The notes: generated from the sequence alone by a model not told the origin. 64,000 nt of DNA from Chloroflexota bacterium (GCA_016781485.1 JADDQH010000003.1:5384-69383); one strand, 5' to 3'; counted from the stretch's first letter, positions 4,724-52,638 are shown. Translations and numbers: made by a program.

Positions 4724-4905
4724 GCTGCGGCCTTCGGGGCAGGGTGAGAATCCCGACCGGTGGTGGTTCCCCGCATCGCGGGGAGAGCCCACGAGCCGCA
4801 CTCGCTCGAGTCGAACGGGTGTGGCAGATCCGACAGCGGTGACTGTGTCAGCGCGAACGGAGCCGACGGTACAGTCCGGATGGAAGAAGGCGTCTTCGCC
4901 GTGCT
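4724..4905 (+). ncRNA. FMN riboswitch (RFN element) in the ribD leader
   Basis: CTTCGGGGCAGGGTGAGAATCCCGACCGGTGGT...AGCCCACGAGC...GCAGATCCGACAGCGGTGA...CAGTCCGGATGGAAGAAGG matches the conserved RFN core (B. subtilis ribD leader: GGGGCAGGGTGAAATTCCCGACCGGCGGTAG...CCGACAGTGAAAGTCTGGATGGGAGAAGG). P1 closure is CCTTC/GAAGG. A CGTGC/GCACG hairpin follows, then a GGAGG RBS before the ribD ATG at 4974. Confidence 0.85.
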
Positions 4906-4973
4906 GCTCGGCACGAGCGTCGCTGCGTTCGCCTGCCCCGAGGTCGCGGTCCTGGTCGCACCGGAGGCAGTGG

Positions 4974-6107: not shown

Positions 6108-7374
6108 CGGCATCGTCGAGGTGATCGCGAGCGTCCGATCCCTCCTTCACGTCGGTCCGGCGGTCCGTCTGACAGTGTCGGGGCTGCCAGCCGCGGAGGA
6201 GGTGGTCCTCGGCGAGAGCATCGCCGTGAACGGGGTGTGCCTGACCGTCGCGGGGCAGGGTGACGACGGTGATGTGACCTTCGACCTGATGCCCGAGACA
6301 CTGCACCGGACGAACCTGGGCTCCCTCGAGCCGGGGTCGGTCGTCAACCTGGAGCGTTCGCTTCGCTTCGGCGACCGGGTCGGCGGGCACTTCGTGCAGG
6401 GTCACGTCGATGGGACCGCGGAGGTCGTCTCGGTCGAACCCGAGGGTGACGCGCTGCTGGTCCGGTTCCGGCTCCACCAGCCGCGACTCGCCGCCTACCT
6501 CGTCGAGAAGGGGTTCGTCGCGGTCGACGGGGTGAGCCTGACGGTGGTCGAGACGCGCCACGAGACGTTCCTCGTCTCACTCGTCCGTACGACGATCGAG
6601 CGGACGTTGCTCGGGTCCCTGCGCACGGGCGCCGTCGTCAACATCGAGGTGGACGTCTTCGCTCGGTACCTGGTCGACCGCAGCATCCTCGCTCCCGCCG
6701 CCGGTGACGCACCGCCCTCAAGCCTGGTCGAAGAGGTCATCACCGACCTGAGGATGGGACGGCCGGTCATCCTCCTGGACGACCCGGACCGCGAGGACGA
6801 GGGCGATCTCGTGATGGCCGCAGAGTTCGCCACTCCGGAGTGGATCGCGTTCTTCATCCGGGAGGCGCGCGGTGTGCTGTGCGTCGCGATGGAAGGATCC
6901 CGCCTGGACGCGCTCGCGGTCCCGCTGATGATCGCCGAGAACACGTCTCCCCAGCGCACTCCGTTCACCGTCAGCGTCGATGCCGTCGGTACCTCGACCG
7001 GCGTCTCCGCCGCTGACCGTGCGCGGACGGTCAGGACGCTCGCGGACCCCGCCGCCCGGCCCTCCGACCTGCTTCGTCCCGGCCACGTGTTCCCGCTCCG
7101 CGCGGCAGCCGGCGGGTTGCAGGAGCGGCGCGGTCACACCGAAGCGGCCGTCGAACTGTGTCGCGCCGCGGGGCTCGCGGCTGCAGCCGTGATCGCCGAG
7201 ATCATCGAGCCCGACGGGCGGATGGCGCGCCGGCCCGAACTCGAGACGTTCGCGCGGACCCACGGCCTCCGGATCGTCTCGGTCGCCGAGCTCGCCGACT
7301 CCCTACGAGTGGACGCCGCGGCGCACCCCGCCGCGGACGGCCCGACGCCTCCCCTCCTGGCGACGATGGCATGA
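6100..7374 (+). CDS. Riboflavin synthase (RibE/RibC) fused in frame to 3,4-dihydroxy-2-butanone-4-phosphate synthase (RibB); no GTP cyclohydrolase II domain
   Basis: N-terminal MFSGIVE...two lumazine-binding repeats (~195 aa), linker, then the DHBP synthase core (RPVILLDDPDREDEGDLVMAAE...GHTEAAVELCRAAGL). At 424 aa there is no room for a RibA domain. Start overlaps the ribD stop; stop overlaps the ribH ATG (ATGA). Confidence 0.85.
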   Translation: MFSGIVEVIASVRSLLHVGPAVRLTVSGLPAAEEVVLGESIAVNGVCLTVAGQGDDGDVTFDLMPETLHRTNLGSLEPGSVVNLERSLRFGDRVGGHFVQGHVDGTAEVVSVEPEGDALLVRFRLHQPRLAAYLVEKGFVAVDGVSLTVVETRHETFLVSLVRTTIERTLLGSLRTGAVVNIEVDVFARYLVDRSILAPAAGDAPPSSLVEEVITDLRMGRPVILLDDPDREDEGDLVMAAEFATPEWIAFFIREARGVLCVAMEGSRLDALAVPLMIAENTSPQRTPFTVSVDAVGTSTGVSAADRARTVRTLADPAARPSDLLRPGHVFPLRAAAGGLQERRGHTEAAVELCRAAGLAAAAVIAEIIEPDGRMARRPELETFARTHGLRIVSVAELADSLRVDAAAHPAADGPTPPLLATMA

Positions 7375-7907
7375 CGGACCAGCCGGACGACCGGGGACTG
7401 ACGCTCGCGATCGTTGCCTCTCGGTTCAACGAGCAGATCGTAGATCGACTATTGGAGACGACGCTCGACGAGCTCACCCGTCTCGGGGTGTCGACCTCGG
7501 ACGTCCTGGTACTGCGCGCTCCGGGTGCCTTCGAGCTGCCCCTCGTGGCACAAGCCGTCCTGGACACGGCCGACCCTCCCGACGCGGTCATCTGCCTCGG
7601 TGCGGTCATCCGCGGCGAGACGCCGCACTTCGACTTCGTGGCGAGGTCCGCGGCAGATGGGATCCTTCGTGTCAGCCTCGACACCGGTCGGCCGGTGATC
7701 TTCGGCGTCCTGACCACCGATACCGCTGAACAGGCCCTCGACCGCGTGGACGGCCGCTACCGGCGGGGGGCCGACGCCGCCCGCGACGCGGTGACGATGG
7801 TGAGGCTCCTGGCGGCGACCCAAGGCGAGCGTCCGCGTACAGTTGCACGGATGCGAACGGGCCGCTCTGACGCCACCGACGGATCACGGGCTGGAGGAGA
7901 TGCGTGA
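7371..7907 (+). CDS. ribH: 6,7-dimethyl-8-ribityllumazine synthase
   Basis: LAIVASRFNEQIVDRLL...GAFELP...AVICLGAVIRGETPHFDFV lumazine synthase core; ATGA overlap with the upstream gene. Confidence 0.85.
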   Translation: MTDQPDDRGLTLAIVASRFNEQIVDRLLETTLDELTRLGVSTSDVLVLRAPGAFELPLVAQAVLDTADPPDAVICLGAVIRGETPHFDFVARSAADGILRVSLDTGRPVIFGVLTTDTAEQALDRVDGRYRRGADAARDAVTMVRLLAATQGERPRTVARMRTGRSDATDGSRAGGDA

Positions 7908-10345
7908 CGGGATCAGGGACCGGGCACACCGGCATCGACCGCGATGAAGCGGTCGCACTCGCCGCGGTCGACTCGGGGAGCGAGCTGGAGGCGCTCCTCG
8001 GACGCGCCGTCGAGGTGCGAGCGGCGCGAGGGAACGGGGTCATCACGTACTCGCCGAAGGTGTTCATCCCCCTGACGAAGCTGTGCCGCGACGTCTGCCA
8101 CTACTGCACGTTCGCCGCACCGCCGAAGCGCGGGCAGCGCAGTTACCTCCGGTCGGATGAGATCCTCGAGATCGCCCGGGCAGGGGCCGCAGCAGGATGC
8201 CGCGAGGCACTGTTCACCGTCGGGGACAAGCCGGAGCTCCGCTACGCTGCGGCTCGTTCCGAGCTCGCGGAGCTGGGGCACGAGACTACGGTCGGTTACC
8301 TCGCCGAGGCCGCCGCCGCCGTCCTCCGGGAGACCCGCCTCCTTCCCCACGCGAATCCCGGCGTGATGGGCGACGCCGAGCTCTCCCTCCTCCGGACCGT
8401 GGCTCCCTCCCAGGGCATCATGCTCGAGAGCCTCTCGACGCGGCTCGCTGAACGCGGCGGACCCCATTTCGGATCCCCGGACAAGATCCCCGGCAGTCGT
8501 CTGGAGACGATGGAGCGGGCGGGCGTGCTGTCCATCCCGTTCACGTCGGGGATCCTGATCGGGATCGGCGAGACGCGCGAGGAGCGGATCGACTCCCTGC
8601 TGGCGATCCGTGAACTCCACCGGCGTCACGGTCACATCCAGGAGGTGATCGTCCAGAACTTTCGAGCCAAGCCCGGGACGAAGATGGCCGGTCGACCTGA
8701 GCCGACGCTCGAGGATCACGTCTGGACGATCGCTATCGCCCGTCTCATCCTCGGCCCCTTCGTCCACATCCAGGCCCCTCCGAACCTCACGGGTGAGTTC
8801 GGCCGGCTCCTCGATGCCGGGATCGACGATTGGGGTGGCGTCTCGCCGGTCACGATCGACCACGTCAACCCGGAGGCTCCGTGGCCCGACCTGGAACGTT
8901 TGCGCGCGGTGACGGCATCGCGCGGGCTCACGCTCGAGCCGCGGCTGACGGTCTACCCGGAATACGTCCGAGAAGCCGGGCGTTGGATCGACGAGGCGGT
9001 GCGACCCCGCGTGCTGAGTCTCGCCGACGGCGAGGGACTCTCGCGCGACGACGCATGGTTCGCGGGGCTGACGGCCGACGCTCCCCCGTTCACCGCCCTC
9101 TTCGCGTCAGCCGTTGCGACTGACGTCCCGATCCGTACGCGCAGCGACCTGGGCTCGATCATCGCTCGCGCTCGCCGCGGGGAGGATCTCGACGAGTCGG
9201 AGATCGTGCGGCTCTTCGCCGCACGGGGGGCGGAGGTGCTCGCGGTGACGGAGGCGGCGGACGCAGTCCGTCGCGACGTGAACGGCGACGTCGTCACCTA
9301 CGTCGTGAACCGGAATATCAACTACACGAACGTCTGCTCGTTCCGGTGTCAGTTCTGTGCCTTCAGCAAGGGGAAGCTGTCCGAGGACCTCAGGGGGCGT
9401 CCGTATCTCCTGTCGCTCGAGGAAGTCGTGCGACGGAGCGTGGAGGCTTGGGAGCGCGGAGCGACGGAGGTCTGCCTGCAGGGCGGCATCCACCCGCAGT
9501 TCACCGGTGACTTCTACCTGGACGTCTGCCGTGCGATCAAGGATGCGCTTCCGCAGATGCACGTCCACGCGTTCTCGCCGCTCGAGGTCACCCACGGCGC
9601 GACAACGCTCGGCGTCCCGATCCCCGTGTTCCTGGAGCGGCTCCGGACGGCAGGCCTTGGGAGTCTGCCGGGGACCGCCGCCGAGATCCTCGATGACGAG
9701 GTGCGGGCGGTGATCTGTCCGGATAAGCTCCGGACGGCCGAGTGGGCGGAGGTGGTGGCGGGGGCGCACCACGTGGGCGTGCCGACGACGAGCACGATCA
9801 TGTTCGGCCACGTCGAGACGTACCACGCCTGGGCTCGCCACCTCCTCGTCCTCCGCCGACTCCAGCGCGAGACTGGCGGGATCACGGAGTTCGTGCCGCT
9901 CCCCTTCGTGCACGCGGAAGCGCCGATGTATCTCAAGGGACGATCGCGAAGGGGGCCCACGTACCGGGAGGCGATCCTCATGCACGCGGTCGCGCGCCTC
10001 GCACTGCACCCACTGATCCCGAGCATCCAGGCATCTTGGGTGAAGCTCGGGCCTACGGGTGCGGCAGGCGCACTGCGGAGCGGCGCCAACGACATGGGCG
10101 GGACGCTGATGAACGAGTCGATCTCCCGTGCCGCTGGCGCGTCTCACGGGCAGGAGCTCCCGCCCGAGACGATGGAGTCGCTCATCCGGTCCGTCGGGCG
10201 AGAGCCGCGGCAGCGGACGACGCTCTATGGTGTCCCGGCTTCGGAGCAGGTCGCCCGCTCGTTCACGGCGCCGCCCCTCGCCGCGCTCATCCAGCCGGCG
10301 GACCTGCGTTACCGGCGCCCTGATCCGACGATGGCGGTCAGGTGA
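7904..10345 (+). CDS. fbiC: Bifunctional FO synthase (7,8-didemethyl-8-hydroxy-5-deazariboflavin synthase, CofG+CofH domains), F420 biosynthesis
   Basis: Two radical-SAM CxxxCxxC motifs (CRDVCHYCTF and CSFRCQFCAF) in an 813-aa protein; GTG start overlapping the ribH stop (GTGA). Confidence 0.85.
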   Translation: MTGSGTGHTGIDRDEAVALAAVDSGSELEALLGRAVEVRAARGNGVITYSPKVFIPLTKLCRDVCHYCTFAAPPKRGQRSYLRSDEILEIARAGAAAGCREALFTVGDKPELRYAAARSELAELGHETTVGYLAEAAAAVLRETRLLPHANPGVMGDAELSLLRTVAPSQGIMLESLSTRLAERGGPHFGSPDKIPGSRLETMERAGVLSIPFTSGILIGIGETREERIDSLLAIRELHRRHGHIQEVIVQNFRAKPGTKMAGRPEPTLEDHVWTIAIARLILGPFVHIQAPPNLTGEFGRLLDAGIDDWGGVSPVTIDHVNPEAPWPDLERLRAVTASRGLTLEPRLTVYPEYVREAGRWIDEAVRPRVLSLADGEGLSRDDAWFAGLTADAPPFTALFASAVATDVPIRTRSDLGSIIARARRGEDLDESEIVRLFAARGAEVLAVTEAADAVRRDVNGDVVTYVVNRNINYTNVCSFRCQFCAFSKGKLSEDLRGRPYLLSLEEVVRRSVEAWERGATEVCLQGGIHPQFTGDFYLDVCRAIKDALPQMHVHAFSPLEVTHGATTLGVPIPVFLERLRTAGLGSLPGTAAEILDDEVRAVICPDKLRTAEWAEVVAGAHHVGVPTTSTIMFGHVETYHAWARHLLVLRRLQRETGGITEFVPLPFVHAEAPMYLKGRSRRGPTYREAILMHAVARLALHPLIPSIQASWVKLGPTGAAGALRSGANDMGGTLMNESISRAAGASHGQELPPETMESLIRSVGREPRQRTTLYGVPASEQVARSFTAPPLAALIQPADLRYRRPDPTMAVR

Positions 10346-10353
10346 CGGCGGCG

Positions 10354-10377
10354 GGGTGACCGCGCTCGCTCGGTCAC
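10354..10377. terminator. Hairpin between the convergent fbiC and Fe-ADH genes (GGTGACCG-N8-CGGTCACC)
   Basis: Perfect 8-bp inverted repeat immediately after the fbiC stop; no T-tract, as expected in a high-GC genome. Confidence 0.4.
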
Positions 10378-10496
10378 CGTCACAAGCACAGCGCGTGGTA
10401 GTCGTCCAGACCGTGTGCGTGACGGTGCTCGCTCATCGCTCCTCGCCGCGACCCTCAGCGCGTGTGCCAGGACCGGCGGGCCGACCTACCGACGAG

Positions 10497-11648
10497 TCAG
10501 GCGCAGATGGTCTCGTACGCCCTTCGAAGCAGCGCGGCGGCGGACGCCTGCTCGACCGCCACCAGGAAGTTGTCCGCGCGTCCGGGCGCGATGAAGCTGC
10601 CCCGGAGGCCGGAGAGCGCCGCCGCACTTCCGATGTGTTGCCTCAGCTCGTCGCCGGCTCCCGCGGACCGGAATAGCGCGTAGAGGCGGTCGACGGCGTC
10701 GGCGACGGACGTGGCGGCGAGCGCCTGGACGATCAGGGCCGCGCGGTCGGGAAACTCCTCGCCGACCTCGCGCAGGATCTCGGGAAGCGTCAGGCTGCAG
10801 GCGATCCCGTGCTGCACGCCAAGCTCCGCGGTCAGCGGATACGAGATCGAGTGCGCGAGCGCCGTCCGGGTATTGCTCATCGCCAGCCCGGCGACCAGCG
10901 CCGCCGAGGCGAGCCGCTCGCGTGCATCGGGATCAGCGGGCGACTCGAGGACGGCTCTCAACGCGTCCGGGATGAGGCCGATCGCACGGATCGCAAGCGC
11001 GTCCGAGATCGGATTCGACGCACGGTTCCAGATCGCCTCCATGGCATGTGACAGCGCGTCGAACGCGGTCGCGACCGTTGTCCTGCGCGGCACGCTGTGC
11101 GTGAGCAACGGATCGACGATGGCCGACTCCGGGTAAAGGCGGGGATGCGAGATCGAGTACTTCTTCCCGGTCCTCTCATCCCAGATCGTGCCCCACATCG
11201 TCACCTCGCTGCCGGTGCCTGCCGTGGTCGGGATGGCAAGGATCGCGGGAGGAAGGAAGTCGGCGGGGAACGGCCCGCCCTCCCTGAGGTGCGCCGAAAG
11301 CCAGGCGTCGGTGCCCGCGGCATCCTGGGCCGCGACCGCCTTCGCGGTGTCGATGACGCTCCCGCCGCCGATGGCCACGATCAGCTCCGCGTCGGCTGCC
11401 CGGACCTCCTCGAAGGCCGTCGTGCACGAGAGGACCGTGGGGTTCGGCGTGACGGCGGTGTACGTCGCGACGACCAGGTCGCCCAGCGCGTTCTCGACCG
11501 TGCGGAGCACGCCGCGGCGGGCCATCCCGTCGGACGTGAGGACGATGGTGCGACGGGACCGGGCGAGCTCCGCCAGCGCGCTCAGCGCGCCCGGGCCGAA
11601 GCGGATATGTACCGGGTTGTGGAAGGTCCTGGTTCGCCCGTCGGTCAA
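10497..11648 (-). CDS. Group III iron-containing alcohol dehydrogenase, predicted phosphonoacetaldehyde reductase (PhpC/FomC/Pdh-like)
   Basis: Fe-ADH fold signatures (GGGSVIDTAK, metal-binding His residues); last gene of the phosphonate operon; 4-nt overlap with ppd. Confidence 0.7.
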   Translation of the reverse strand: MTDGRTRTFHNPVHIRFGPGALSALAELARSRRTIVLTSDGMARRGVLRTVENALGDLVVATYTAVTPNPTVLSCTTAFEEVRAADAELIVAIGGGSVIDTAKAVAAQDAAGTDAWLSAHLREGGPFPADFLPPAILAIPTTAGTGSEVTMWGTIWDERTGKKYSISHPRLYPESAIVDPLLTHSVPRRTTVATAFDALSHAMEAIWNRASNPISDALAIRAIGLIPDALRAVLESPADPDARERLASAALVAGLAMSNTRTALAHSISYPLTAELGVQHGIACSLTLPEILREVGEEFPDRAALIVQALAATSVADAVDRLYALFRSAGAGDELRQHIGSAAALSGLRGSFIAPGRADNFLVAVEQASAAALLRRAYETICA

Positions 11649-12796
11649 CCGGGGAACCAGGACATGAACTGCTCCCTGACCTCGGCAGGCGCGTGGGCTG
11701 GCCGCCCGAGCTCCGGCGCTGAGCCGAGCGCGACCTTCACGTGCACGAGGTTGGGTCCGGTCGTGTTCATGCCCTCGGTGACGGCCGCCTCGAGCGCGTC
11801 GGCGGTGTCGACGCGCCAGATGTTCCGATAGCCGCAGCCAGCCGCGATCGTGGCGAAGTCGATACCCGAGGACACGGTCGCCTGACCGCCCGTCGACTCG
11901 TGCGCTTCGTTGTCGATGATCACGTGAAGGAAGCGAGCAGGTTGGCTGTAGCCGATGGTGGCGAGCGTGCCGAGCTTCATCAGCGCAGCGCCATCGCCGT
12001 CGAGGACGACGACGTTCCGGCTGCCGCGCCCGCCGAGATGCATGCCGAGGCCGATGCCGGACGCCGTCCCCATCGCCCCCACGACGTAGAACTGATTTGG
12101 GCGGTGGCCGAGCGTGTACAGCTCTCGTCCGATCTTTCCGGTCGTGCCGATGAGCGCCGCGCCGTCTCCGGCCGTGTCGCGAACGATCCGAATGGCCTCG
12201 ATCCGCGGCATCCGCTCCGACGGCGCGACCGTGAACGTCCCGCGTGGCGAGGCGAGCGGAGGCACCGGGTGGCGTGGCTGCTCGCTCAGCTCGTAGTCAT
12301 CGACCGCGCCCTTCCTCATCACGAACGCGTACGGACGTCCGGTCTCCGCCATGCACTCCTCGGCGCGCTCGAGGGCCGGCACGACCAGCGCCGGGTCCTC
12401 CGGGAAGAAGTCCCACGGGATCCGCATGGTCGTCAGCAGGTCACCTGTGATCTGGCCCATGAGCTCGTGCTGCGGCTCATCACGGACGCCGGGTGCGCCG
12501 CGGTGCGTGGTGATGAACAGCGTCGGGATCCGGAACGTGTAATTGAGTGACGTGAGCGGGTTGACCGCGTTGCCGAGCCCTGAGTTCTGGCAGATCACCA
12601 CGCTCTTGCGGCCGGCAAGATACGCGCCGGCCGCGACGCCGAGCGCCTCGCCTTCGCTCGCGGCGCCCACGTAGTCGACGTCGGGGCTACTGATGACGTA
12701 GTTGATGAATGGCGTGAGGAACGAGCACGGCACTCCGGCCCAGAACGAGTACCCCCGCTCGAGCGCCGGCTGGACGAAGTCGTGGGCCTTGATCAC
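11645..12796 (-). CDS. ppd: Phosphonopyruvate decarboxylase, fused alpha/beta (TPP-dependent)
   Basis: TPP-binding GDGA...N motif region (VVLDGDGAALMKLGTLATIG...IIDNEAHESTGGQ). The ORF-track ORF starts at a GTG 36 nt upstream; the start is set at the GTG that overlaps the stop of the upstream gene (GTGA). Adjacent to pepM. Confidence 0.85.
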   Translation of the reverse strand: MIKAHDFVQPALERGYSFWAGVPCSFLTPFINYVISSPDVDYVGAASEGEALGVAAGAYLAGRKSVVICQNSGLGNAVNPLTSLNYTFRIPTLFITTHRGAPGVRDEPQHELMGQITGDLLTTMRIPWDFFPEDPALVVPALERAEECMAETGRPYAFVMRKGAVDDYELSEQPRHPVPPLASPRGTFTVAPSERMPRIEAIRIVRDTAGDGAALIGTTGKIGRELYTLGHRPNQFYVVGAMGTASGIGLGMHLGGRGSRNVVVLDGDGAALMKLGTLATIGYSQPARFLHVIIDNEAHESTGGQATVSSGIDFATIAAGCGYRNIWRVDTADALEAAVTEGMNTTGPNLVHVKVALGSAPELGRPAHAPAEVREQFMSWFPG

Positions 12797-14907
12797 GACT
12801 CGATGTTCCTGCGGCCCTTGGCGTCGTACCACTGCCTGGAGTCGCCGACCACGCGCGCGAGGTTGTCGCGGCCCCCGGCGGCGATCGCCGAGAGCTCGAG
12901 TTGTGCGTCGCCGCTCACCCGGCCACCGATCCTGAGGACGAGCAACCGACCGCCCTGGCCCCGATAGCCGTGCCGAAGAGACGGCTTGGCGTATGCCGAA
13001 TCTCCCGGTGCGAGGGTGTCCTCGTATCGGTCCGTGCCGACCTCCCAGACCATGCTGACCGGGGTAGTGCCGACGTTGTAGACGTACTGGTGGAGGCCGA
13101 CGCGCAGGTCCGGCACGGCGGCTTCGTCGCGCTGCACGTTGAGCTCGAGACCCTTCGAGAACGGGAGGCTCCTCACCGGCGTGAGTTCCACCATCTCGTA
13201 TGCCGGCGCCCCGTCCGGATAGCTCCAGCGCGGTGAGTCGGCGTAGCGCTGGACCAGGACCGACTCCTCCAATACGTCGGGCACGAGCAGGTCGCGGACG
13301 CTGACGCGGAGCGCATCGGCGAAGCGTCGGAGCTCGTCCTCGGAGGGCTCGTCGCTGCCGGCCTCGAGCGCCTCTATCCGCGCCACGTGGAGCGCGGCCC
13401 GCCGCGCGAGCTCGCCGCAGGAGAGGCTGAGCCCCTCGCGATGGAAGCGCAGGAGCGACCCCATCGCTCGCTTCCGATCCGAGAAGTCGAGCACCAGCCC
13501 CGCAGCCAGCTCCGCGCCCAGCGCCGAGACCTCCTGGCGCGTCTCTCCAGCGAGCTTGTTCCCGTACGTCAGCGCCAGGATGAGGCCGAGCTCGCCGCGG
13601 TCATTCCTCCGTGAGGCGAACGAATGGGGAACGAACGGCGCGATGTACATCGAGTCGCCGGTGTCCATGACCGCGACGTTCTTTCGCCCGTCCGTCCCCC
13701 GGTAATAGAAATTCACCGGCCCCACGAAGTACGTGAACTGGTGGAGGAAGTGCCCGTTGTTCCACTGGATCGCCTGGTTCTCCGGGTCGTTGTCCTCGAC
13801 GACGCAGAGCTCCTTGATCCACTCGGGCCGGAATTGCGACAGCGAGCTCATCGCGGTGTCCCGGTACTCGTAGTAGTCCGCCCCGGCGCGCGCCATCACA
13901 CGGCTGCTCCGCTCGGAGTCCGCGGCGCGGAAGATGCGCACGCCGGTCGGGGCGTCGTCGTGGAGCAGATAGAACTCGCGCGGGCTGACCGGCCATGCCG
14001 CCGTGGCCTTGTCCACAAGCGCCGGCGGCAGCGACTTCCGCCCACCGATGATCTCCTCGATCTCGGGCAGAGGAACGCCGAGCTCTGCGGCGGCGTCCTC
14101 GGGGCGTCGCTTGAGGTCATTCAGGATCGCCCTGAAGTTCTCGCCGGTCCGTACGTCAGAAACCACTTGTCCTCCCGCCTTCCGGAAATCCTCGATCGTG
14201 TCGATCTCCCGCCACCCGCCACGGATGGTCACCGCGCGCACCTCGTGTCCGCGGTCGATGAGCTCCTGGAGCATATCGGTCAGGTACGCACGCTCCAGCT
14301 GCGCCGCCGCCTGGAACGGCCTGCCGGAGTGCGCCGCCGAGACATCGGCGAACACTCTCCGAAACGTCTGCGCGCCAGCGCGGGAGAGCCGCAGGAGGCC
14401 GATGAACTCGCCATCCGCATCGGCTTCGTCGAGATGCTTGCCGATCCTCGTGATGACCCCGTCCGTGAGGGCCACCTTCTCCGCCTGCGCGATCGGATGC
14501 TCCACCCGACCCTCGTACACCTTCCTCCAGTCGACGTCGCATACCGCCAGGAAGTCGCCCGTCGCCGACAGGAGTGTCTCGACCACGCTCGGCTCGTAGA
14601 CGATGTCCGAGTAGCTGACGACCACGTCGTCGTCGAGCTCCTCGCTCGCATACATCAGCGAGAGCAGGATGTTGTTGTTCCGGTAATCGGCGTTGAAGCG
14701 CGTCCTGACGCCGGAAAGCAACGGCGCGAGCCGGTCCGCCCGATACCCCGTGACGACGGTGATGTCGGCGATCCCGAACTCGCGGAACGTGTCGAGCTGG
14801 CGCTCGATGAGCGACCTTCCGTCCAGCTGGAGCATGCACTTCGGCTGGTCGCGCGTCAGGTGTCGCAGTCGGCTGCCCAGGCCGGCTGCCAGGACGATGG
14901 CTTTCAT
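12793..14907 (-). CDS. Fusion protein: N-terminal LicC-like nucleotidyl (cytidylyl) transferase (~250 aa) + C-terminal HEPD/MPnS/HppE-family bicupin dioxygenase with two HTH segments (~450 aa); candidate methylphosphonate synthase
   Basis: N-terminus MKAIVLAAGLGSRL...KCMLQLDGRSLIERQ is the NTP-transferase G-loop. The C-terminal part has an XRE-type HTH (LSLSCGELARRAALHVARIEALEAG) and a cupin with GHFLHQ...(37 aa)...FVPHSF. The ligand pattern is H, Q at +4 and H at +42, with F at +14 and I at +36. Length and layout match the bicupin-HTH enzymes. Confidence 0.7.
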   Translation of the reverse strand: MKAIVLAAGLGSRLRHLTRDQPKCMLQLDGRSLIERQLDTFREFGIADITVVTGYRADRLAPLLSGVRTRFNADYRNNNILLSLMYASEELDDDVVVSYSDIVYEPSVVETLLSATGDFLAVCDVDWRKVYEGRVEHPIAQAEKVALTDGVITRIGKHLDEADADGEFIGLLRLSRAGAQTFRRVFADVSAAHSGRPFQAAAQLERAYLTDMLQELIDRGHEVRAVTIRGGWREIDTIEDFRKAGGQVVSDVRTGENFRAILNDLKRRPEDAAAELGVPLPEIEEIIGGRKSLPPALVDKATAAWPVSPREFYLLHDDAPTGVRIFRAADSERSSRVMARAGADYYEYRDTAMSSLSQFRPEWIKELCVVEDNDPENQAIQWNNGHFLHQFTYFVGPVNFYYRGTDGRKNVAVMDTGDSMYIAPFVPHSFASRRNDRGELGLILALTYGNKLAGETRQEVSALGAELAAGLVLDFSDRKRAMGSLLRFHREGLSLSCGELARRAALHVARIEALEAGSDEPSEDELRRFADALRVSVRDLLVPDVLEESVLVQRYADSPRWSYPDGAPAYEMVELTPVRSLPFSKGLELNVQRDEAAVPDLRVGLHQYVYNVGTTPVSMVWEVGTDRYEDTLAPGDSAYAKPSLRHGYRGQGGRLLVLRIGGRVSGDAQLELSAIAAGGRDNLARVVGDSRQWYDAKGRRNIES

Positions 14908-14913
14908 GCTCCG

Positions 14914-16545
14914 TCACCGATACTGTCCGGCGCCGCCGAAATTCGACGCAGCGACGACGTCGTGCATGTCGTCCACGTCCAGCCAGTGGCCGCGGACGTA
15001 GACGACTTCGACCCGCCTGCCGCGCGCGAGGAGCGCATCGAAGACGTCCGCCATCCGCATGGTACGCGCGGCGCCGGTCGCCATCAGCTCCGTGCCCAGC
15101 TCCTTCAGCTGCTCCAGGCCCGACGCGGACATCTTCAGCAGGCCGATCCACTCGCCGTGCACCTGACCGGGCGGGAGCGTCGTGCTCATCTTCCCGAGGT
15201 GGGCGGTCTGATCGAACTCGCGCCAGTGGAACGGGCGGTCGCAGCACACCAGATCGCGGTAGCCGTCGCGATGCGCATCGTTCGCCGAGTCGGGGTCGAC
15301 GGCGATGCAGAAGTCCGAGTCCGACTCGAACAGCTGCATGGGGATGAACTTCTGGAAGAGGACGTCGCCGTACGCCACCAGGACCGGGCCAGAGAGCCCC
15401 TCCAACCCCTTGAACAGCGAGAAGGCCTCCTGGGTCGTGGCGTGCTCGTCGTTGTCGACGTACCGCGTATTCGGAAGCTGCAGTGCTTCCTTCCGGTAGC
15501 CGCGCACGACCGTGACGTCCTTGATGCCGATGCTCGTGAACGTCTCCATCATCCGCTCGAGAAGCGGCTTGCCCGCGATCTCGACCATCGCCTTCGGCCG
15601 ATCCTCCGTCAGGACGCCGAGCTCCTTGCCTCGGCCCGCCGCGAGCACGAGGGCCTGGGGCGCGCCCTGCCGAGCGGGGAGGTAGCGGCGCTCAGCCTCC
15701 TCCAGCTCGCCTGCGCCCTGGATCCGGAAGACCTCGCGGACGCTCACGATGCGGTCCTCGATATTCAGCAGGCTCTCCTCGCGAGAGAGCTGCTGCGCCG
15801 TCTGCTGCATCGCGGTGAGTGCGCTCCGCATGAGGTGGTTCGCCCAGATGACGACGCTGATGCCGGCCTCACGGAACACCTCGGTCGGCGTGCTGTAGTA
15901 CGTGGTCGGCACGATGACGACCGGGCAGCGGTCGCCCCATTCCTTCTTGAACGCGAGGATCTCGTCCGGGCGTGAGAGCTTGCTGTGGATGAGGATCGCG
16001 TCAGCGCCGGCGCGGTGATAGGCATCGGCCCTCCTGAGCGCCTCGGAAAGGCCCCAGCCGGCGATCAGCGCTTCCACGCGGGCGACGATGCTGAAGCTGT
16101 CATCGCGCTGCGCGTCCTTCCCCGCCTTGATCTTTCCGCAGAACTCGTCCACGTCGGCGAGTGGCTGGTTCTCGCCGATGAAGCTATTCGTCTTCGGGAA
16201 CAGTTTGTCCTCGATGGCCACTCCCGCCACGCCACGGGTCTCGAGCTTCTGGACGAGCCGCCGCATGTTGTTGAAGTTCCCGTAGCCCGTGTCACCGTCG
16301 AGCAGGATGGGGATCTTCACGGCATCGGTGACGAACTCGAGCAGGTCGAGCACCTGCGTCCAGCTCATCTCGTTGTTGTCGCGTACGCCCATCGAGGCGG
16401 AGATGGAGAGGCCGCTTCCCCACAGCCCTTCGAATCCCGCTTCCTCGGCGACCTTGGCGCTCAGGCCGTTGTGGGCCTCCATGAGGAAACTCAGCCCGTC
16501 GCGCGTCAGGATCTCTCGCAGCGCCTGCGTCTTCGATGAGTTCAT
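14914..16545 (-). CDS. pepM: Fusion protein: N-terminal phosphoenolpyruvate phosphomutase (PepM) + C-terminal LicC-like nucleotidyl (cytidylyl) transferase
   Basis: Diagnostic PepM motif [13 protein letters not shown] (EDKxxxxxNS) in an isocitrate-lyase-superfamily TIM barrel. The C-terminal part [33 protein letters not shown] is the NTP-transferase G-loop. GGAG RBS 6 nt before the downstream ATG. Confidence 0.85.
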
Positions 16546-17720
16546 GTCGCGACGTTTGCCGTGACGCGCTCGCGCGTCCTGTCCGCGACGAGGGCCACGT
16601 GGCTCGCGCCCACCGTCGCACTGCGCCCCACGTTGTAGACGTGACGTGCGCGCGCCTCTCGCAGCAGCGGCCGGAACCCTTCGCGCCTCGCGGAGAGATC
16701 GTCGATGCGGTCGAGGACAGCACGGAGGTCACCGGGGTCGACGATGCCGCCGAGCTCCTCGCGCACCGACTCTTCGAGCGGCACGAGTCCCACCCGTTCG
16801 TACTCGGGATTGTTGATCTTCTTCGGCGTGTCGACGAAGAGGACCGGACGCTCCAGGCCGAACGCGTACTCCAGGGCAGCTCCCGACCAGTCGCTGATCA
16901 TCAGGTCCGACTCGTGCAGCGACTGTTGTGCGTTCATGTCGGTCTCGACCCGGAATGACCGGTCGCCGAACCGCTGGGCCAGGGTCGTGGCGAGCTTCGG
17001 GAAGCGCCGCACGGTCATCGGGTGAAGGCGCAACACCACGGAGTGACCGGCGTCGACGAGTAGCTGCACGAGCTCCTGTCCGTACGGCGCCTCGATGAAA
17101 GAGCACGCTCCCCAGGACGGGGCGAGCACGATCCTGGTCATTCCGTCTTGTGCCGCCGCCCAGGGATGCTCGGCGCTCGTCCGGAGGATCGCGTCGAGAC
17201 GCCCGTAGCCGTGCTCCACGAGCTCCTTCGGCGGCAGCCCGTACGACTCCTCGGTGCGGCGGATCTCAGCGACGTGATGCGGTCCCACGCAGAAGACCGT
17301 GTCGTAGGCGTCGAACGCGCCCTTGCGATAGATCATGTGGGTGCTCACCATCGAATGGAACACGTAAACGTAGTGCACCGGGTGCACCGAGCGCTTCAGG
17401 TGGAACGACTCCAGGTCGGGAAGTGTCATCACGACGACATCGGCGTCCACGACCTTGAAGAACGCCGTCCGCGCCGCCCCCGCGCCGATGAAGAACGTGC
17501 GGATCCGAGGATCGTCGAGCGAGAGCACGGGATCGGTGGCGTCGGAGGTGACGTAGCAGATGCTGCGGCCCAACGAAGCCGTCAATTCGTTCACGATCGG
17601 CCCCAGGTGCGGCCAGTCGGCTCGTCCTTCCGCGTAGAAGACTATACCGCGGTCCTCCCGCGGAAGGCGATCGAAGGTCCGCATCGAGGACCACGCCGCG
17701 AAGGCATCCTTCAGCGACAC
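16542..17720 (-). CDS. TagF/TagB-like CDP-alcohol phosphotransferase (Glyphos_transf family), first gene of the phosphonate operon
   Basis: C-terminal region [27 protein letters not shown] resembles the TagF catalytic motif (xTDYSSxxFDYxxLxRPxxFY). ATGA overlap with pepM. Confidence 0.65.
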
Positions 17721-18028
17721 GGGGTCACCGGCGAGCCTTGGGTACCGACTTGTCGCCGGTCGTCGCCCGGTCGCTGACCCCTCTGCATCCCTCCGGGCGA
17801 CGTCCGGACGTCAGCCGTCCGGCGTCCGGGTCGACGGGGCTCGAGCTCGTCACCGGCGCGTTGCTCGTCTCCGGGGCCGTCACCGCCGATGCGATGGCGA
17901 CCCTGCTCCACCGCGTTCCGCAAGAAGAACGAGGTCGCGCCGGCTGGGGTGGATCTGGAGGAGCACGATGCCCGTGCCGGCATCGACGAACGCAAACGGC
18001 ATGTGGGAAGCCTCCCGGTTTCGGTAAG

Positions 18029-18108
18029 CCACTCGCCCGCCTGGGGGGCGAGGCAGGGTGCCGAGTGGGAGCGGCGATTGTCGCGGAATCCGGACCCTTT
18101 GACAATCG
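18029..18108. promoter_or_regulatory. GC-rich hairpin (CCACTCG...CGAGTGG) followed by a perfect 8-bp inverted repeat CGATTGTC-N18-GACAATCG, in the 490-bp gap between arsR and the phosphonate operon
   Basis: Seen directly; no convincing ORF in the gap; function unknown. Confidence 0.3.
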
Positions 18109-18208
18109 TAGCTGGACCAGGAACGTCGCCCACTACACCGTCGGACTCGGCTCGGCGGCCCATGAATGGCTGGCGCCGCTCACGCTCGCCCACTGCCGAA
18201 CGAAGGCG

Positions 18209-18553
18209 TTACCGCGGCTGGATCACGTCGAGTGGCTGCCGGCCACTGCGCAGCGCGCCGGCGGGGCGCGACTGCGTCGGCTCGATCTCCCCTGCGAGCC
18301 GGCGGAACCGCCCGACGGCTTCCGGCCGCAACGAGTACCAGATCCAGGTGCCGCGGCGCTCGCCGGCGACCCAGCCGGCGTCGCGCAGGACCTTCAGATG
18401 GTGCGAGACCGTGGGCTGGCTTACCTCGCAGCACGCGGTGAAGTCACAGGCGCAGATCTCGCCCTCCGCCGACAGCTGGCGGAGGATGGCGAGCCGTGTC
18501 GGGTCTGCGGCCGCCTGGAGGAGAACGACATCGGGGTCCGTCTGACGCTTCAT
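18209..18553 (-). CDS. arsR: ArsR/SmtB-family metalloregulator
   Basis: HTH region LAILRQL...CACDF...[18 protein letters not shown] with metal-binding Cys (ICACDF); start trimmed to the ATG matching the ~115-aa family length. Confidence 0.8.
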
Positions 18554-18621
18554 GCTTGACGAGGATATCGATGCTCGCCTATATTGACAACCGTCGATAC
18601 ATCGTAAGGAGGAGACCACTC

Positions 18622-18792
18622 GTGAACCAGGCCACCGAACTCGTCCGATCGGTGCAAAGGGAGCGTCTTCGCGAGGCCGAGCGTGGCCGTTTGGCCCGCC
18701 TTGCTGGCTTGGCGCGCGCCTGTTGCGCGGCCGCGTCCACGAAGATGTTGCGGCTGGGCCGCACGCGTCGACCCGCGTCCGCGTGCTGCTGA
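18622..18792 (+). CDS. Small (56 aa) Cys-pair-containing ORF upstream of arsM
   Basis: Strong RBS AAGGAGGAG 7 nt before the GTG; encodes [56 protein letters not shown] with two vicinal Cys pairs; the stop lies 10 nt before the arsM ATG. Confidence 0.3.
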
Positions 18793-18802
18793 GGCGACCG
18801 CG

Positions 18803-19618
18803 ATGATCGACGAGGTCCACGAAACCGTCCGCGACCGGTACGCGCAGGCCGCGCTCTCGGTGATGGCGACGGGCGCGAGCTGTTGCGGTGACGAGCCGGG
18901 GAGCGGGGGCGAGCTGTACGACGCGCTTACCCGCGACGAGTTGCCGGAGGCGGCCGTCCTCGCGTCACTCGGCTGCGGCAACCCCATCGCCGTGGCCGAT
19001 CTGCGAGAAGGCGAGCGCGTTCTCGACCTGGGTTCCGGCGGCGGGATAGACGTGTTGCTCTCGGCCAAGCGCGTGGGACCGACCGGGCGCGCGATCGGGC
19101 TCGACATGACCGACGAGATGCTCGCGCTGGCTCAGAAGAACGCCGCGGACGCGGGTGCGACGAACGTCGAGTTCCTGAAGGGCCACATCGAGGCCATCCC
19201 CTTGCCTGCCGACTCCGTTGATGTCGTGATCAGCAACTGCGTCGTCAACCTCGCTGCAGACAAGCCCGCGGTCTTCCGCGAGATCGCTCGCGTGCTCAGG
19301 GCCGGTGGACGCGTCGGCATCAGCGACATCGTGGCGGACGACGCGCTCACCCCTGGGCAGCGTGCCGAGCGGGGCTCGTATGTCGGTTGTATCGCCGGCG
19401 CATTGTCGGTATCGGAGTTCGAGGCCGGGCTCCGCGAGGTCGGGCTGACCGGGGTTTCCGTGACACCGACGCATGCTGTGGCGGAAGGCCTGTCCAGTGC
19501 GATCATCAAGGCGACCAAGCCCGGAGGCGCTGCGGGAGCCCCCGCGCCGGCGGTGAAACCGGGCGCGGTCTCCGCCTCGAGTGGCTGCTGCGGTGGCGGA
19601 GGCTGCTGCTGCTGCTAG
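18803..19618 (+). CDS. arsM: Arsenite S-adenosylmethionine methyltransferase with a Cys/Gly-rich C-terminal tail
   Basis: SAM-methyltransferase motif VLDLGSGGG plus conserved ArsM cysteines ([25 protein letters not shown]); C-terminus [13 protein letters not shown]. Confidence 0.8.
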
Positions 19619-19673: not shown

Positions 19674-20606
19674 ATGGCGTTCGACCCCCGCCGATCGATG
19701 AAGGTCGGCGTCATCCTCCCGTTCTCGCAACGCGAGATGGGCGGAGAGACGCCACGCTGGAACGACCTCGTGGCGATGGCTCGGACGGCGGAGGCCATCG
19801 GCCTCGACTCGATCTGGATCTCGGACCACCTCCTGTTCCGATTCGAGGGGCAGGAACCGCGTGGCCCGTGGGAGTGCTGGTCGCTCGTCAGCGCGCTGGC
19901 GGTCGCGACCGAGCGGGTCGAGATCGGGACATATGTGAACTGCACGAGCTTCCGCAACCCGACGGTGTTCGCGAAGATGATCGACACGGTCGAGGAGATC
20001 AGCGGCGGGCGGCTGATCATCGGGCTCGGTGCCGGCTGGCACGAGCCGGAATACCAGGCGTTTGGCTTCCCGTTCGACCACCGGGTCAGCCGGTTCGAGG
20101 AAGCGATCGAGATCATCACCCGCCTGTTGCGCGAAGGGCACGTCGACTTCCAGGGGCGGTACTACCAGGCACGCGACTGCGAGCTACGCCCTCGCGGACC
20201 CCGCCCTGCCGGGCCACCGATCATGGTCGGCTCGACGCGCCCCCGGATGCTCCGGCTCGCCGCGCGGTACGCAGATGCGTGGAACGGCTTCGCAAAGCGG
20301 ATCGACGTCCTACCGTCACTGAACACGTCCGTCGACGAGGCATGCCGGGACGTTGGACGCGATCCCGCCACGCTCGCGCGAACCGCGGAGACCCACGTCC
20401 GCTTCCCGCACCTTGCCCCGGAGGGCGACGAAGCGGATCTCATGGGCGAGCCGGAAGAGCTGGCCGAGGTGCTGGCGCCGTATGCCGGGCACCGACTTGC
20501 CCATCTCCAGCTCCGGATCCGGCCGGACACCGTCGCATCGATCGAAGCGTTCGCGCCCGCGCTCGAGGCGCTCGATCGCCGGCTGGGTCATCGCGCCGGC
20601 GGGTGA
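19674..20606 (+). CDS. Luciferase-like monooxygenase (LLM) family oxidoreductase, probably F420-dependent
   Basis: LLM TIM-barrel signatures (MKVGVILPF...DSIWISDHL...GRLIIGLGAGW); F420 biosynthesis gene fbiC lies nearby. Confidence 0.6.
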   Translation: MAFDPRRSMKVGVILPFSQREMGGETPRWNDLVAMARTAEAIGLDSIWISDHLLFRFEGQEPRGPWECWSLVSALAVATERVEIGTYVNCTSFRNPTVFAKMIDTVEEISGGRLIIGLGAGWHEPEYQAFGFPFDHRVSRFEEAIEIITRLLREGHVDFQGRYYQARDCELRPRGPRPAGPPIMVGSTRPRMLRLAARYADAWNGFAKRIDVLPSLNTSVDEACRDVGRDPATLARTAETHVRFPHLAPEGDEADLMGEPEELAEVLAPYAGHRLAHLQLRIRPDTVASIEAFAPALEALDRRLGHRAGG

Positions 20607-20674: not shown

Positions 20675-21922
20675 TCAGCGACCCGTGGCCGCACCGAGGA
20701 CGAGTCGGGCGCGCCGGACCGCACGCGACTCGCGGAGCGAGGCGTGAGCGCCGAGCCGGATCGGCGCGCCGGCGTTGTCGAGGTACAGCAGGACCCCTCC
20801 GGTCGTCGCGATCGCGCACAGGCCGAGGGCGGTCGTCAGGTCGACGAACCCTGTTTGGACCAGACCGGCGCCGAGGAACGGAGCGACCATCCCGCGCAGA
20901 CCGGTCGCCGCACTCCACCCTGCGACCGCGGCGCCACGGGATTCGAGCGGCGTGTTGTCGCTGATCACTGCCGAGATGCCGACATCGATCCCTGCGCTGG
21001 CCGCTCCCGCCGCGATCGCGGCGACCCAGAGGGTATGGAGGTCGCCCGCGATCGTGTACCCGAGCAACGATCCGAGCCCCAGCGCGCTTCCGCCGGCGAG
21101 GACCGCGCGAGGTCCTATCCTGTCGCTGACGACGCCCCAGGCGACGAACGAGACGGTGGTCGCGACCGAGATCAACGTGGCGACGACGGCCACATCGGCC
21201 AGCGACAGCGAGAGCCGGTCCACGTAGACGAGCGGATACAGAGGGACCGCCGCGATCATCCCGCCCCCGTAGAGCGCCTGCGCCAGAACGGCGCGGCGCA
21301 GCACGGGGCGCTCCGTGAGGGCACGGATCGATCCCCTCGCAGAGAACGCCGGCGCGTCACTGAGTCGAGCCCGCAGCCCGGCGTAGGCAGCTGCAGCAAG
21401 CATCCCGACGATCCCGGCCGCGGCGATGACGGGCAGGTCACCGGTCACGGCAGCAGCAACCCCGACCAGCAGCGTCGCGGCGACCGCCGCGCCGGCTCGG
21501 CCCGCGCCCAGCACGCCGAGCACGCGACCGCGCAGCCGGTCCGGGTACATCGCGCCCCAGAGACGCAGCTGGACGGGCGTCCCGAACGCGATCCCGACCC
21601 AGAATGCGAAGGCTGCGGCGACCATCACCGCGGGGATCGGCACGATCAGCACGGCCACGAGCGCGCCGGCGCCGAGTGCGCGGAGCAGCGCAAGCTGCCG
21701 TGGCGTCCGCGGGCCGATCCCGCCGGAGAACGCACCGAGGACGTTGGCGACGAACGGCGCTGAGGCAAGTGCAGCGAGTCCGGCAGGTTCGATCCCCGCA
21801 CGCCTCGCGACCGTGGGAAGGAGTGTCGAGACGACGACGACCGTGACGCCGACCCCCAGCGCGGCGAGCAGGTCGAGGGAAAGATTGCGCCGCATCCCGG
21901 CGGCGGGGATCTCGTGAGACAT
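20675..21922 (-). CDS. MFS transporter
   Basis: 12 predicted TM helices, Ala/Gly/Leu-rich; typical MFS loop 2-3 motif region. Confidence 0.7.
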   Translation of the reverse strand: MSHEIPAAGMRRNLSLDLLAALGVGVTVVVVSTLLPTVARRAGIEPAGLAALASAPFVANVLGAFSGGIGPRTPRQLALLRALGAGALVAVLIVPIPAVMVAAAFAFWVGIAFGTPVQLRLWGAMYPDRLRGRVLGVLGAGRAGAAVAATLLVGVAAAVTGDLPVIAAAGIVGMLAAAAYAGLRARLSDAPAFSARGSIRALTERPVLRRAVLAQALYGGGMIAAVPLYPLVYVDRLSLSLADVAVVATLISVATTVSFVAWGVVSDRIGPRAVLAGGSALGLGSLLGYTIAGDLHTLWVAAIAAGAASAGIDVGISAVISDNTPLESRGAAVAGWSAATGLRGMVAPFLGAGLVQTGFVDLTTALGLCAIATTGGVLLYLDNAGAPIRLGAHASLRESRAVRRARLVLGAATGR

Positions 21923-22112
21923 GACAGGACCTCGAGTGGGCAGTGGGCCTGCGAGGTCAGCTGTCGGGCTCGGCGGCGTGCGCCTTCGCGGTCCATCCGC
22001 GATTCGCCCCGGTGGGTGGTGGTTCCCCCGTCCTCTTGCGAGATTCGGCCAGGGACAAGGCTACACCGCATCGGCTTCGAAGGCCGGTGGCGCTCCCGGC
22101 TATCGTAGCCTT

Positions 22113-52468: not shown

Positions 52469-52638
52469 CAGGACCTCCCATCGCGGGGCTCGCGCCACGC
52501 CATCCCTCGGCGGTCAGGGGTAGTGCCATGCATGGCGCCGGCATGACCACGCCGCCGCGTGCTCACGCCGCCTGTCCTTCGGTTCGCCGGTGCCGCACGA
52601 GGTCGACGACCTCCATCGCGGCCGCTCTCCGCCGCGTC

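Follow-up and report, generated by a model that had tools for sequence, protein, structure and literature searches.

A predicted methylphosphonate-ester operon with fused nucleotidyltransferase domains and a TagF-like partner in soil-type Chloroflexota

Methylphosphonate (MPn) is the accepted precursor of the methane made in oxygenated water, and its producers known to us, namely Thaumarchaeota and SAR11, are marine. Later accounts of Metcalf et al. 2012 describe the Nitrosopumilus maritimus cluster as containing pepM, ppd, pdh, mpnS, nucleotidyltransferase and sulfatase-like genes, and the same accounts place MPn esters on the exopolysaccharide of this organism (PMC9381506, PMC8942020). In the Pnt pathway, PntC, a LicC-like enzyme of the PF12804 family, makes the cytidine monophosphate (CMP) conjugate of 2-aminoethylphosphonate (2-AEP), for which a LicD-type transfer has been proposed (Rice et al. 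2019, PMC6697681). PntC and Fom1 together provide the precedent for activation of phosphonates as CMP conjugates (PMC6697681). Roughly one in three Ppm proteins is a fusion of phosphoenolpyruvate (PEP) mutase, PepM, to a PF12804 nucleotidyltransferase (NTP) domain, and clusters holding two NTPs are likewise known (PMC6697681, PMC8942020). Here we describe a five-gene operon in a 64,000-nucleotide stretch of DNA from a Chloroflexota bacterium (GCA_016781485.1, JADDQH010000003.1:5384-69383), hereafter the window. The operon encodes, in order, a TagF-like protein, PepM fused to a first NTP domain (NTP1), a second NTP domain (NTP2) fused to a bicupin of the methylphosphonate synthase (MPnS) type, a phosphonopyruvate decarboxylase (Ppd) and an iron-dependent alcohol dehydrogenase (ADH). 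It is probably a self-contained module that makes an MPn ester on a cellular acceptor. The wider proposition, which we put forward tentatively and which falls a little short of being probable, is twofold: that Limnocylindria, the class of the host, are terrestrial MPn-ester producers, and that the TagF-like subfamily of ~390 aa supplies the missing 2-hydroxyethylphosphonate (2-HEP)/MPn phosphonyltransferase using CMP-phosphonate donors.

The five genes lie on the minus strand in a single direction and span 10497-17720 (individual coordinates in Table 1). Open reading frames (ORFs) read from the window and domain searches agree on the operon and on the domain content that an earlier note on this sequence had claimed for it, and the public gene call of the sequence, listed there as contig JAGELI010000020.1 of MAG GCA_017884105.1, returned the same five genes. 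In the case of ppd the longest ORF extends to 12832, and the public call begins at GTG 12796. The GC content at third codon positions (GC3) is 0.86-0.90 in all five genes, a codon-position bias that marks genuine genes in this sequence of ~69% GC. Translational coupling had been proposed on the basis of ATGA and GTGA overlaps and a 6-nt GGAG spacer. Read from the sequence, these features are found at the TagF-like/PepM junction (ATGA), the MPnS/Ppd junction (GTGA) and the PepM/NTP-MPnS junction (TGA, CGGAGC, ATG), but the last overlap, between Ppd and ADH, is a TTGA with TTG as the ADH start codon, which the proposal had not listed. With this one correction the proposed coupling stands. The leader holds one weak sigma-70-like site (18105-18077, minus strand) and no ORF backed by GC3; the promoter and terminator scan gave weak sigma-70-like sites only and no intrinsic terminator, and an Rfam scan of 10000-19000 at E<=1 found no riboswitch and no other RNA family.

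The genes for the route from PEP to 2-HEP were assigned by family models. The PepM domain scores 385.8 bits against TIGR02320 (equivalog cut-off 319.55) and stays under the cut-offs of the models for phosphonopyruvate hydrolase and methylisocitrate lyase. Along its entire length it can be aligned with the Mytilus PEP mutase (PDB: 1m1b; E 2.8e-121). It contains the EDKxxxxxNS motif, and in the 1m1b alignment the DxD, Arg and His positions are intact, with DGDTGYG, VARVEA and IHSK conserved, so that its original identification as a PEP mutase is borne out. Ppd exceeds the equivalog cut-off of TIGR03297 (413.2 versus 312.5 bits) and carries both thiamine pyrophosphate (TPP) domains, PF02776 and PF02775, in one polypeptide, in agreement with the fused alpha/beta decarboxylase that had been postulated. 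The ADH matches the Pfam Fe-ADH family at 4.7e-40 and occupies the position after ppd seen in known clusters. Its best NCBIfam model is the phosphonate-specific TIGR03405 (Phn_Fe-ADH) at 338.7 bits, with the next family at 183 bits, yet this score is under the cut-off of 423.7. The protein is a group III Fe-ADH, and a role as phosphonate ADH is suggested at the level of the family, where that model leads by >150 bits. The operon has neither an aminotransferase nor a radical-SAM methyltransferase, as previously stated. An aminotransferase of class I/II at 44926-46179, considered as a pathway member, was rejected as unrelated, being 27 kb distant and beside gatCAB, and the adjacent radical-SAM gene at 7904-10345, considered as a Fom3-like methyltransferase, was rejected as a fused F0 synthase of the CofG/CofH type (FbiC) on the opposite strand.

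The bicupin (residues ~250-700 of its protein) matches the N. maritimus MPnS (PDB: 6b9s) with E 3.1e-141 and 475 bits, and HEPD (PDB: 6b9r) with E 1.5e-93 and 318 bits. Identity with HppE, a single-cupin epoxidase of ~198 aa, was ruled out, the match to it being weak, partial and confined to one cupin (5u55, 8.9e-6; 1zz6, 2.6e-3). PMC11978286 cites as discriminators of MPnS a 2-His-1-Gln iron triad together with Phe and Ile neighbours of the Gln ligand, which are needed for MPn as against hydroxymethylphosphonate (HMP) formation. In the window the triad is formed by H386, Q390 and H428, which correspond in the alignment to H148, Q152 and H190 of 6b9s and do not vary within the fused clade, and the marker residues are present as F400 and I422. 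The residue numbers of these discriminators are reportedly those of Born et al. 2017. A survey of 83 homologue-bearing loci (80 scan loci and three copies of the window's own operon) recovered the combination HQFIH in 55. Among these are the window, every gene linked to an NTP, and the majority of the loci from Nitrosopumilaceae and other archaea, L028 being the exception. The combination HQYGH was found in 25 loci, 20 of them actinomycete or Actinomycetes-labelled (Streptomyces, Amycolatopsis and others); further loci with it are two of 'Ca. Angelobacter', one of Pyrinomonadaceae, those of Phenylobacterium and Myxococcales (L072, L073), and L028. An HEPD-type bicupin with HMP as its product would be in keeping with the shared superfamily and with the 6b9r match, but where the actinomycete HEPD-type loci have Tyr and Gly the window has Phe400 and Ile422, and the solved MPnS is matched at 475 as against 318 bits; we therefore regard this alternative as extremely improbable. 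The bicupin is predicted to be an MPnS and not an HEPD. Its placement in the HEPD/MPnS/HppE family has thus been upheld and sharpened, and what had been left as a C1 or C2 product becomes, by the HQFIH markers, MPn.

K266, R340, Y348 and N383 of the window protein align with K28, R102, Y110 and N145 of the N. maritimus MPnS and are conserved. The latter four residues are those that bind the free phosphonate. Given the conservation of their equivalents, MPnS would act on free 2-HEP and NTP2 would act afterwards; action of MPnS on CMP-HEP, following a Fom3-like logic, was considered and judged unlikely on the same grounds. Among the homologues, those of SAR202 (L040 and L053, marine Chloroflexi) have mixed Tyr and Ile markers (HQYIH), because of which their MPnS/HEPD product is not predictable. 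L028, from the Marine Group I thaumarchaeote F20, has the HEPD-type Tyr/Gly pair inside an otherwise MPnS-like archaeal cluster with a TagF-like gene. Some bicupin homologues already bear the label 'methylphosphonate synthase' from the automated annotation of JGI.

The two NTP domains, which share 30% identity, differ in the state of their nucleotide-binding loops. NTP2 scores 56.5 bits against PF12804 (gathering score 27), matches LicC (PDB: 1jyk) at 2.4e-16 and PntC (PDB: 6pd1) at 9e-9, and has the canonical AAGxG(S/T)RL...PK loop, reading LAAGLGSRLRHLTRDQPK. NTP1 scores 48.7 bits against PF12804 and matches 1jyk at 2.3e-12; in its loop, LAAGRGKEL, the conserved Arg of AAGxG(S/T)RL is absent and the lysine of the PK element is kept. 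This Arg is missing in every PepM-fused homologue examined (the window, L004-L012, L033, L036, L042, L058, L060 and L084, with the pattern LAA(G/S)RGxEL), and is kept by NTP2 and by all MPnS-adjacent NTPs. The PepM-fused PF12804 domains may hence have another substrate, another mechanism or no catalytic activity. Of the two cytidylyltransferase domains that had been proposed, both fall within PF12804 and the second has a canonical loop, but because NTP1 is without the loop Arg the existence of two cytidylyltransferases is not established.

The association of NTP2-like domains with MPnS extends well beyond the window. The two are fused in Limnocylindria, Planctomycetota (L010) and Vampirovibrionales (L035, L069), and elsewhere, in bacteria and DPANN archaea, they are separate and adjacent, in the order NTP-MPnS in six loci and MPnS-NTP in eight. 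In Nitrosopumilaceae an NTP2-like gene is kept within ~1.2 kb. Adjacency in both orders, taken together with independent fusions, provides strong evidence of a comparative kind that the NTP would act on the MPnS product, and NTP2 is accordingly a candidate MPn cytidylyltransferase. Other fusion orders were also encountered, namely NTP-PepM with an N-terminal NTP in Nanoarchaeota and PepM-NTP in Woesearchaeota (L031, 1733-3439; L048, 9017-10783), and Fom1-type fusions of PF01467 (CTP_transf_like) to PepM adjoin members of the same TagF-like subfamily in L085, L087 and L088.

The TagF-like protein passes the gathering score of the Pfam family Glyphos_transf, PF04464 (32.5 versus 22.1 bits), over residues 156-296 only, and a plain sequence search with it against the PDB gave nothing meaningful. 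Its AlphaFold model (pLDDT 92.5, pTM 0.90) has TagF (PDB: 3l7m) as the top Foldseek match in the PDB (E 1.4e-12), with further matches to the TagF-like Cps3 capsule polymerase (8qoy) and, lower down, to TarL (8va1); generic GT-B glycosyltransferases and 2-epimerases match the model at E 1e-9 or weaker. The first gene had been assigned to the Glyphos_transf family, and both the gathering score and the best fold match of a high-confidence model support this, although the Pfam match covers only part of the protein. A family profile derived from an alignment of 36 homologues aligns with residues 345-489 of TarL, encompassing the family motifs GYGRLD (GxPRxD), APSWG, RLHP and ISDWSG..EY, and the nucleotide-binding motifs of the C-domain are thus kept. 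H122 and H148 are invariant in the 36 homologues, and H122, to judge by its spacing from GxxRxD, is the likely equivalent of the catalytic His of TagF (H444) and TarL (H300). The subfamily is large and mostly unannotated. Many of its members are labelled 'YidC/Oxa1 family membrane protein insertase' by JGI/IMG. As the model shows a soluble GT-B fold, this has the look of an annotation error passed on from record to record.

It is very improbable that the TagF-like protein is an ordinary CDP-glycerol transferase of the teichoic-acid type, co-transcribed with the phosphonate genes by chance. NCBI does label its homologues 'CDP-glycerol glycerophosphotransferase family protein', with which the Pfam membership agrees, but the operon has no gene for CDP-glycerol synthesis (tagD-like), the gene overlaps pepM by 4 nt, the protein is too divergent from characterized TagF and TarL for plain sequence search, and members of the subfamily turn up together with phosphonate genes in unrelated phyla of both bacteria and archaea.

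Given these assignments, the probable module for an MPn ester can be cast as a six-step pathway. PepM would convert PEP to phosphonopyruvate, and Ppd would decarboxylate the latter to phosphonoacetaldehyde, thereby pulling forward the unfavourable mutase equilibrium. The Fe-ADH would then reduce phosphonoacetaldehyde to 2-HEP, from which, in the free form, the MPnS domain would release MPn by oxidative cleavage. These four steps are backed by equivalog-level or marker-residue evidence, with the ADH placed at the family level. In the fifth step NTP2 would join MPn and cytidine triphosphate (CTP) into CMP-MPn, a phosphate-phosphonate anhydride analogous to CDP-glycerol and CDP-choline. In the sixth, an acceptor hydroxyl on a glycan, glycolipid or glycerol-lipid would attack the phosphonyl phosphorus on the TagF-like GT-B enzyme, so that CMP leaves and an MPn monoester remains, exactly as glycerol phosphate is transferred from CDP-glycerol. 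These last two steps are inferred from the families of the proteins, from the fusion and adjacency of the genes, and from their conserved co-localization. As MPn has no hydroxyl, the outcome would be a terminal decoration and not a polymer. NTP1 could be a 2-HEP cytidylyltransferase, following a Fom1-like logic and leading to mixed HEP/MPn decoration, or a non-catalytic partner.

The NTP-MPnS fusion of ~700 aa is represented by ~45 sequence clusters (at >=70% identity) in the protein database, and those with a source label come from soil metagenomes or from Limnocylindria metagenome-assembled genomes (MAGs). The five-gene operon is not unique to the window, being conserved in many soil MAGs; the identical gene order was found in at least eight Limnocylindria or Chloroflexia MAGs with 60-86% protein identity, and since the flanks there are unrelated to those of the window the operon resembles a cassette in its behaviour. 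In Myxococcota and Acidobacteriota (L033, L036) the genes stand in another order, namely TagF-like, PepM-NTP1, Ppd, NTP2, MPnS and ADH. TagF-like homologues with 31-42% identity also occur near a gene of the MPnS/HEPD family in marine group I Thaumarchaeota (L028, L052), SAR202 (L053), Vampirovibrionales and another Myxococcota locus. The proposal that a CMP-activated phosphonate is handed to a TagF-like transferase, which the earlier note had advanced for the window, gains strength from this comparative picture, because many phyla have an NTP fused to MPnS or next to it and because TagF-like subfamily members keep occurring together with phosphonate genes; the transfer step itself and its acceptor stay conjectural.

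A sample of seven more distant TagF-like members (~50-55% identity) points to the probable antecedents of this arrangement. Five of them adjoin PepM and Fe-ADH genes with no MPnS (L084, L085, L087, L088, L089); a recognizable Ppd is present in three of these loci and a stand-alone NTP in three, and a sulfatase-like gene is usual. In the remaining two the neighbours are an NTP, a methyltransferase and a sulfatase-like gene (L090), and a sulfatase-like gene and ATP sulfurylase (L086). As the distant members sit in MPnS-free 2-HEP clusters, the ancestral module would have combined 2-HEP synthesis, an NTP and the TagF-like transferase, and in the lineage of the window the stand-alone NTP appears to have acquired MPnS. 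These sister clusters also bear on the possibility that the product of the window carries 2-HEP, or both 2-HEP and MPn, with NTP1 cytidylylating 2-HEP, NTP2 cytidylylating MPn and the TagF-like enzyme transferring either. They share the layout of TagF-like, PepM-NTP, Ppd, stand-alone NTP and ADH genes, and in the absence of MPnS their product must be of the HEP type; the window operon moreover retains two NTP domains, and cytidylylation of HEP by a PepM-fused domain has a precedent in Fom1 (PMC6697681). However, since the MPnS-free clusters hold two NTPs as well, a second phosphonate does not account for the second NTP. In addition, the loop Arg is absent from NTP1 in every homologue examined, and NTP1 belongs to PF12804, as against PF01467 for the Fom1 cytidylyltransferase (CyTase), with the fusion order reversed. 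We consider a HEP-bearing product unlikely.

After the operon, most Limnocylindria relatives encode one or two proteins of ~520-540 aa with multiple N-terminal transmembrane segments and a weak Sulfatase (alkaline-phosphatase superfamily) domain, which gives them an LtaS/EptA-like, membrane-anchored topology. Such genes were recorded in L004 (15375-18541), L051 (15483-18664), L006, L007, L008, L011 and L013, and also in L027, L028, L052, L033, L084, L085, L087, L088 and L090, and they pair with the TagF-like gene across phyla. No homologue was found in the whole 64-kb window; the pathway may lack a component here or may depend on genes located elsewhere. This absence is one of several observations that weigh against an MPn ester on a cellular acceptor as the product of the window. 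The others are the lack of glycosyltransferase, polysaccharide-export and lipid-synthesis genes next to the operon, the ADH score beneath the TIGR03405 equivalog cut-off, the non-canonical loop of NTP1, the nucleotide of NTP2 (CTP or another), which is only presumed, the partial Glyphos_transf match together with a catalytic His placed by spacing alone, and the fact that the functions of the whole clade are read from sequence. The missing glycan, lipid and LtaS-like genes would equally fit free MPn or a small soluble conjugate, serving as a phosphorus store or a secreted metabolite, with the TagF-like enzyme acting on a small alcohol such as glycerol. This we regard as quite improbable, because nucleotidyl activation with a transferase is typical of the decoration of macromolecules (PMC6697681) and related clusters are found in the midst of genes for glycosyltransferases, Bac_transf, NeuB and sulfatase-like proteins.

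The host had been thought a high-GC Gram-positive bacterium. The GroEL encoded in the window, however, shares 88-92% identity with proteins that bear the labels Chloroflexota, Candidatus Limnocylindria/Limnocylindrales or CSP1-4, and the nearest relatives of the operon proteins come from Limnocylindria or 'Chloroflexia' soil MAGs, which places the window in Chloroflexota, class Limnocylindria. No synteny of the flanks with Limnocylindria loci was found, and the class was consequently taken from GroEL. The rest of the window is of a housekeeping character (dnaE, rib genes, fbiC, gatCAB, ligA, pcrA, groES/EL), and the operon is flanked by riboflavin genes, fbiC, an arsR-like gene and a methyltransferase gene; the phosphonate cassette appears inserted in a flavin/F420 cofactor neighbourhood. 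The ArsR-family gene was considered as a regulator of the operon, which is unsupported, since it is divergent with the methyltransferase gene, lies 488 bp away and is not conserved beside the operon in relatives. The intergenic region shared by the ArsR and methyltransferase genes has promoter-like sites, and the pair is probably unrelated to the phosphonate operon and could be of the ArsR-ArsM type. The 1431-aa protein elsewhere in the window is probably a large secreted or surface protein.

Table 1. Positions of the operon genes, their domains and other features in the window, counted from its first nucleotide
Feature	Position	Strand	Remarks
TagF-like (Glyphos_transf family) GT-B protein, 392 aa	16542..17720	-	operon gene 1; candidate CMP-phosphonate:acceptor phosphonyltransferase
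PepM-NTP1 protein, 543 aa	14914..16545	-	operon gene 2
PEP mutase domain, aa 1-290 of the 543-aa protein	15676..16545	-	predicted PEP to phosphonopyruvate, C-P bond formed; TIGR02320, 1m1b
NTP1, LicC-like PF12804 domain, C-terminal to PepM	14914..15675	-	PF12804, 48.7 bits; non-canonical loop
NTP2-MPnS protein, 704 aa	12793..14907	-	operon gene 3
NTP2, LicC/PntC-like domain, aa 1-248 of the 704-aa protein	14164..14907	-	candidate MPn cytidylyltransferase
MPnS domain, aa 249-704 of the 704-aa protein	12793..14163	-	2-HEP + O2 to MPn + CO2/bicarbonate (predicted); 6b9s match, marker residues
Ppd, single polypeptide with TPP N- and C-domains, 383 aa	11645..12796	-	start GTG 12796; TIGR03297
Group III Fe-dependent alcohol dehydrogenase, 383 aa	10497..11648	-	candidate phosphonoacetaldehyde reductase (phosphonoacetaldehyde to 2-HEP)
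Leader/promoter region, 488 bp, non-coding	17721..18208	-	between ArsR-family gene and TagF-like start
ArsR/SmtB-family HTH gene	18209-18553	-	
SAM-dependent methyltransferase (Methyltransf_31/25/11)	18683/18803-19618	+	divergent to ArsR gene
Riboflavin genes (ribD, ribE-ribB fusion, ribH) running into fused CofG/CofH F0 synthase fbiC	4695-10345	+	
Luciferase-like monooxygenase	19674-20606	+	
ComB-type 2-phosphosulfolactate phosphatase	21921-22880	+	CofB-like candidate
Two tandem M14 zinc carboxypeptidase genes (650, 560 aa)	30177-33808	+	
1431-aa protein	48203-52498	-	weak M14 match, two Calx-beta domains, DUF11

In the literature searched we found no NTP-MPnS fusion, no link between a TagF-like/Glyphos_transf enzyme and phosphonate clusters, no MPnS in Limnocylindria, and no characterized enzymes for the nucleotidyl activation or transfer of HEP or MPn. 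PepM-NTP fusions and two-NTP clusters, on the other hand, have been documented. What is new is the NTP-MPnS fusion, the TagF-like partner and the soil lineage; the pathway logic was already known. Surveys of freshwater and groundwater have recorded mpnS seldom or not at all (PMC10734540, PMC11978286), and a 2026 review of soil Chloroflexota, in the part that treats Wang et al. 2025, places pepM mainly in other classes of the phylum. A marker-complete MPnS in a conserved operon of soil Chloroflexota is a concrete candidate for a terrestrial source of MPn. If the wider proposition holds, Limnocylindria, a class widespread in soil and freshwater, would feed aerobic methane formation driven by C-P lyase outside the ocean, and the TagF fold would gain a new enzyme activity, often exercised alongside LtaS-like membrane enzymes. 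The NTP-MPnS fusion and its TagF-like partner nominate enzymes for the activation and transfer of HEP or MPn in phosphonoglycan or phosphonolipid assembly. The operon of the window, being the most compact 'make, activate, attach' form met in this analysis, would be convenient for heterologous reconstitution.

The operon can be compared with the systems described so far. With the N. maritimus cluster it shares the four-enzyme route from PEP to MPn, the iron ligands and Phe/Ile markers of an MPnS that aligns over its full length, a LicC-like NTP nearby and, as the proposed outcome, a surface polymer esterified with MPn. A TagF-like homologue is likewise present in some marine group I relatives (L052). 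It differs from that cluster in the fusion of its NTP to MPnS, the second NTP domain on PepM, and a Ppd in a single polypeptide where the archaeal loci give two hits. Its five genes furthermore form one tight operon that begins with the TagF-like gene, the window has no sulfatase-like genes, and the host is a soil-type chloroflexotal bacterium as opposed to a marine archaeon.

The likeness to the Pnt pathway lies in the predicted activation of the phosphonate as a CMP conjugate by a PF12804 enzyme, followed by transfer to the surface, and in the occurrence of a fused and a separate NTP in one cluster. Unlike Pnt, the presumed substrate is MPn, a C1 compound with no amine, no aminotransferase is present, a TagF-like GT-B protein takes the place of LicD, and one NTP is fused to the enzyme that would make its substrate. 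With Fom1 the operon has in common a PepM-nucleotidyltransferase fusion in a pathway via 2-HEP, with Ppd and Fe-ADH alongside, but the Fom1 CyTase domain (PF01467) is N-terminal whereas the window domain (PF12804) is C-terminal, and the window is without the radical-SAM methyltransferase, FomD and HppE of the fosfomycin pathway. The TagF-like protein, finally, shares with TagF, TarL and Cps3 (PDB: 3l7m, 8va1, 8qoy) the GT-B fold, the C-domain motifs GxxRxD, RxHP and SDxS..EY, and the predicted attack of an acceptor hydroxyl on the phosphorus distal to CMP. It departs from them in its low identity (~13-16%), in the absence from its 392 aa of a polymerase-type membrane-association extension, and in its presumed use of a CMP-phosphonate instead of a CDP-polyol donor, probably for a single decoration.

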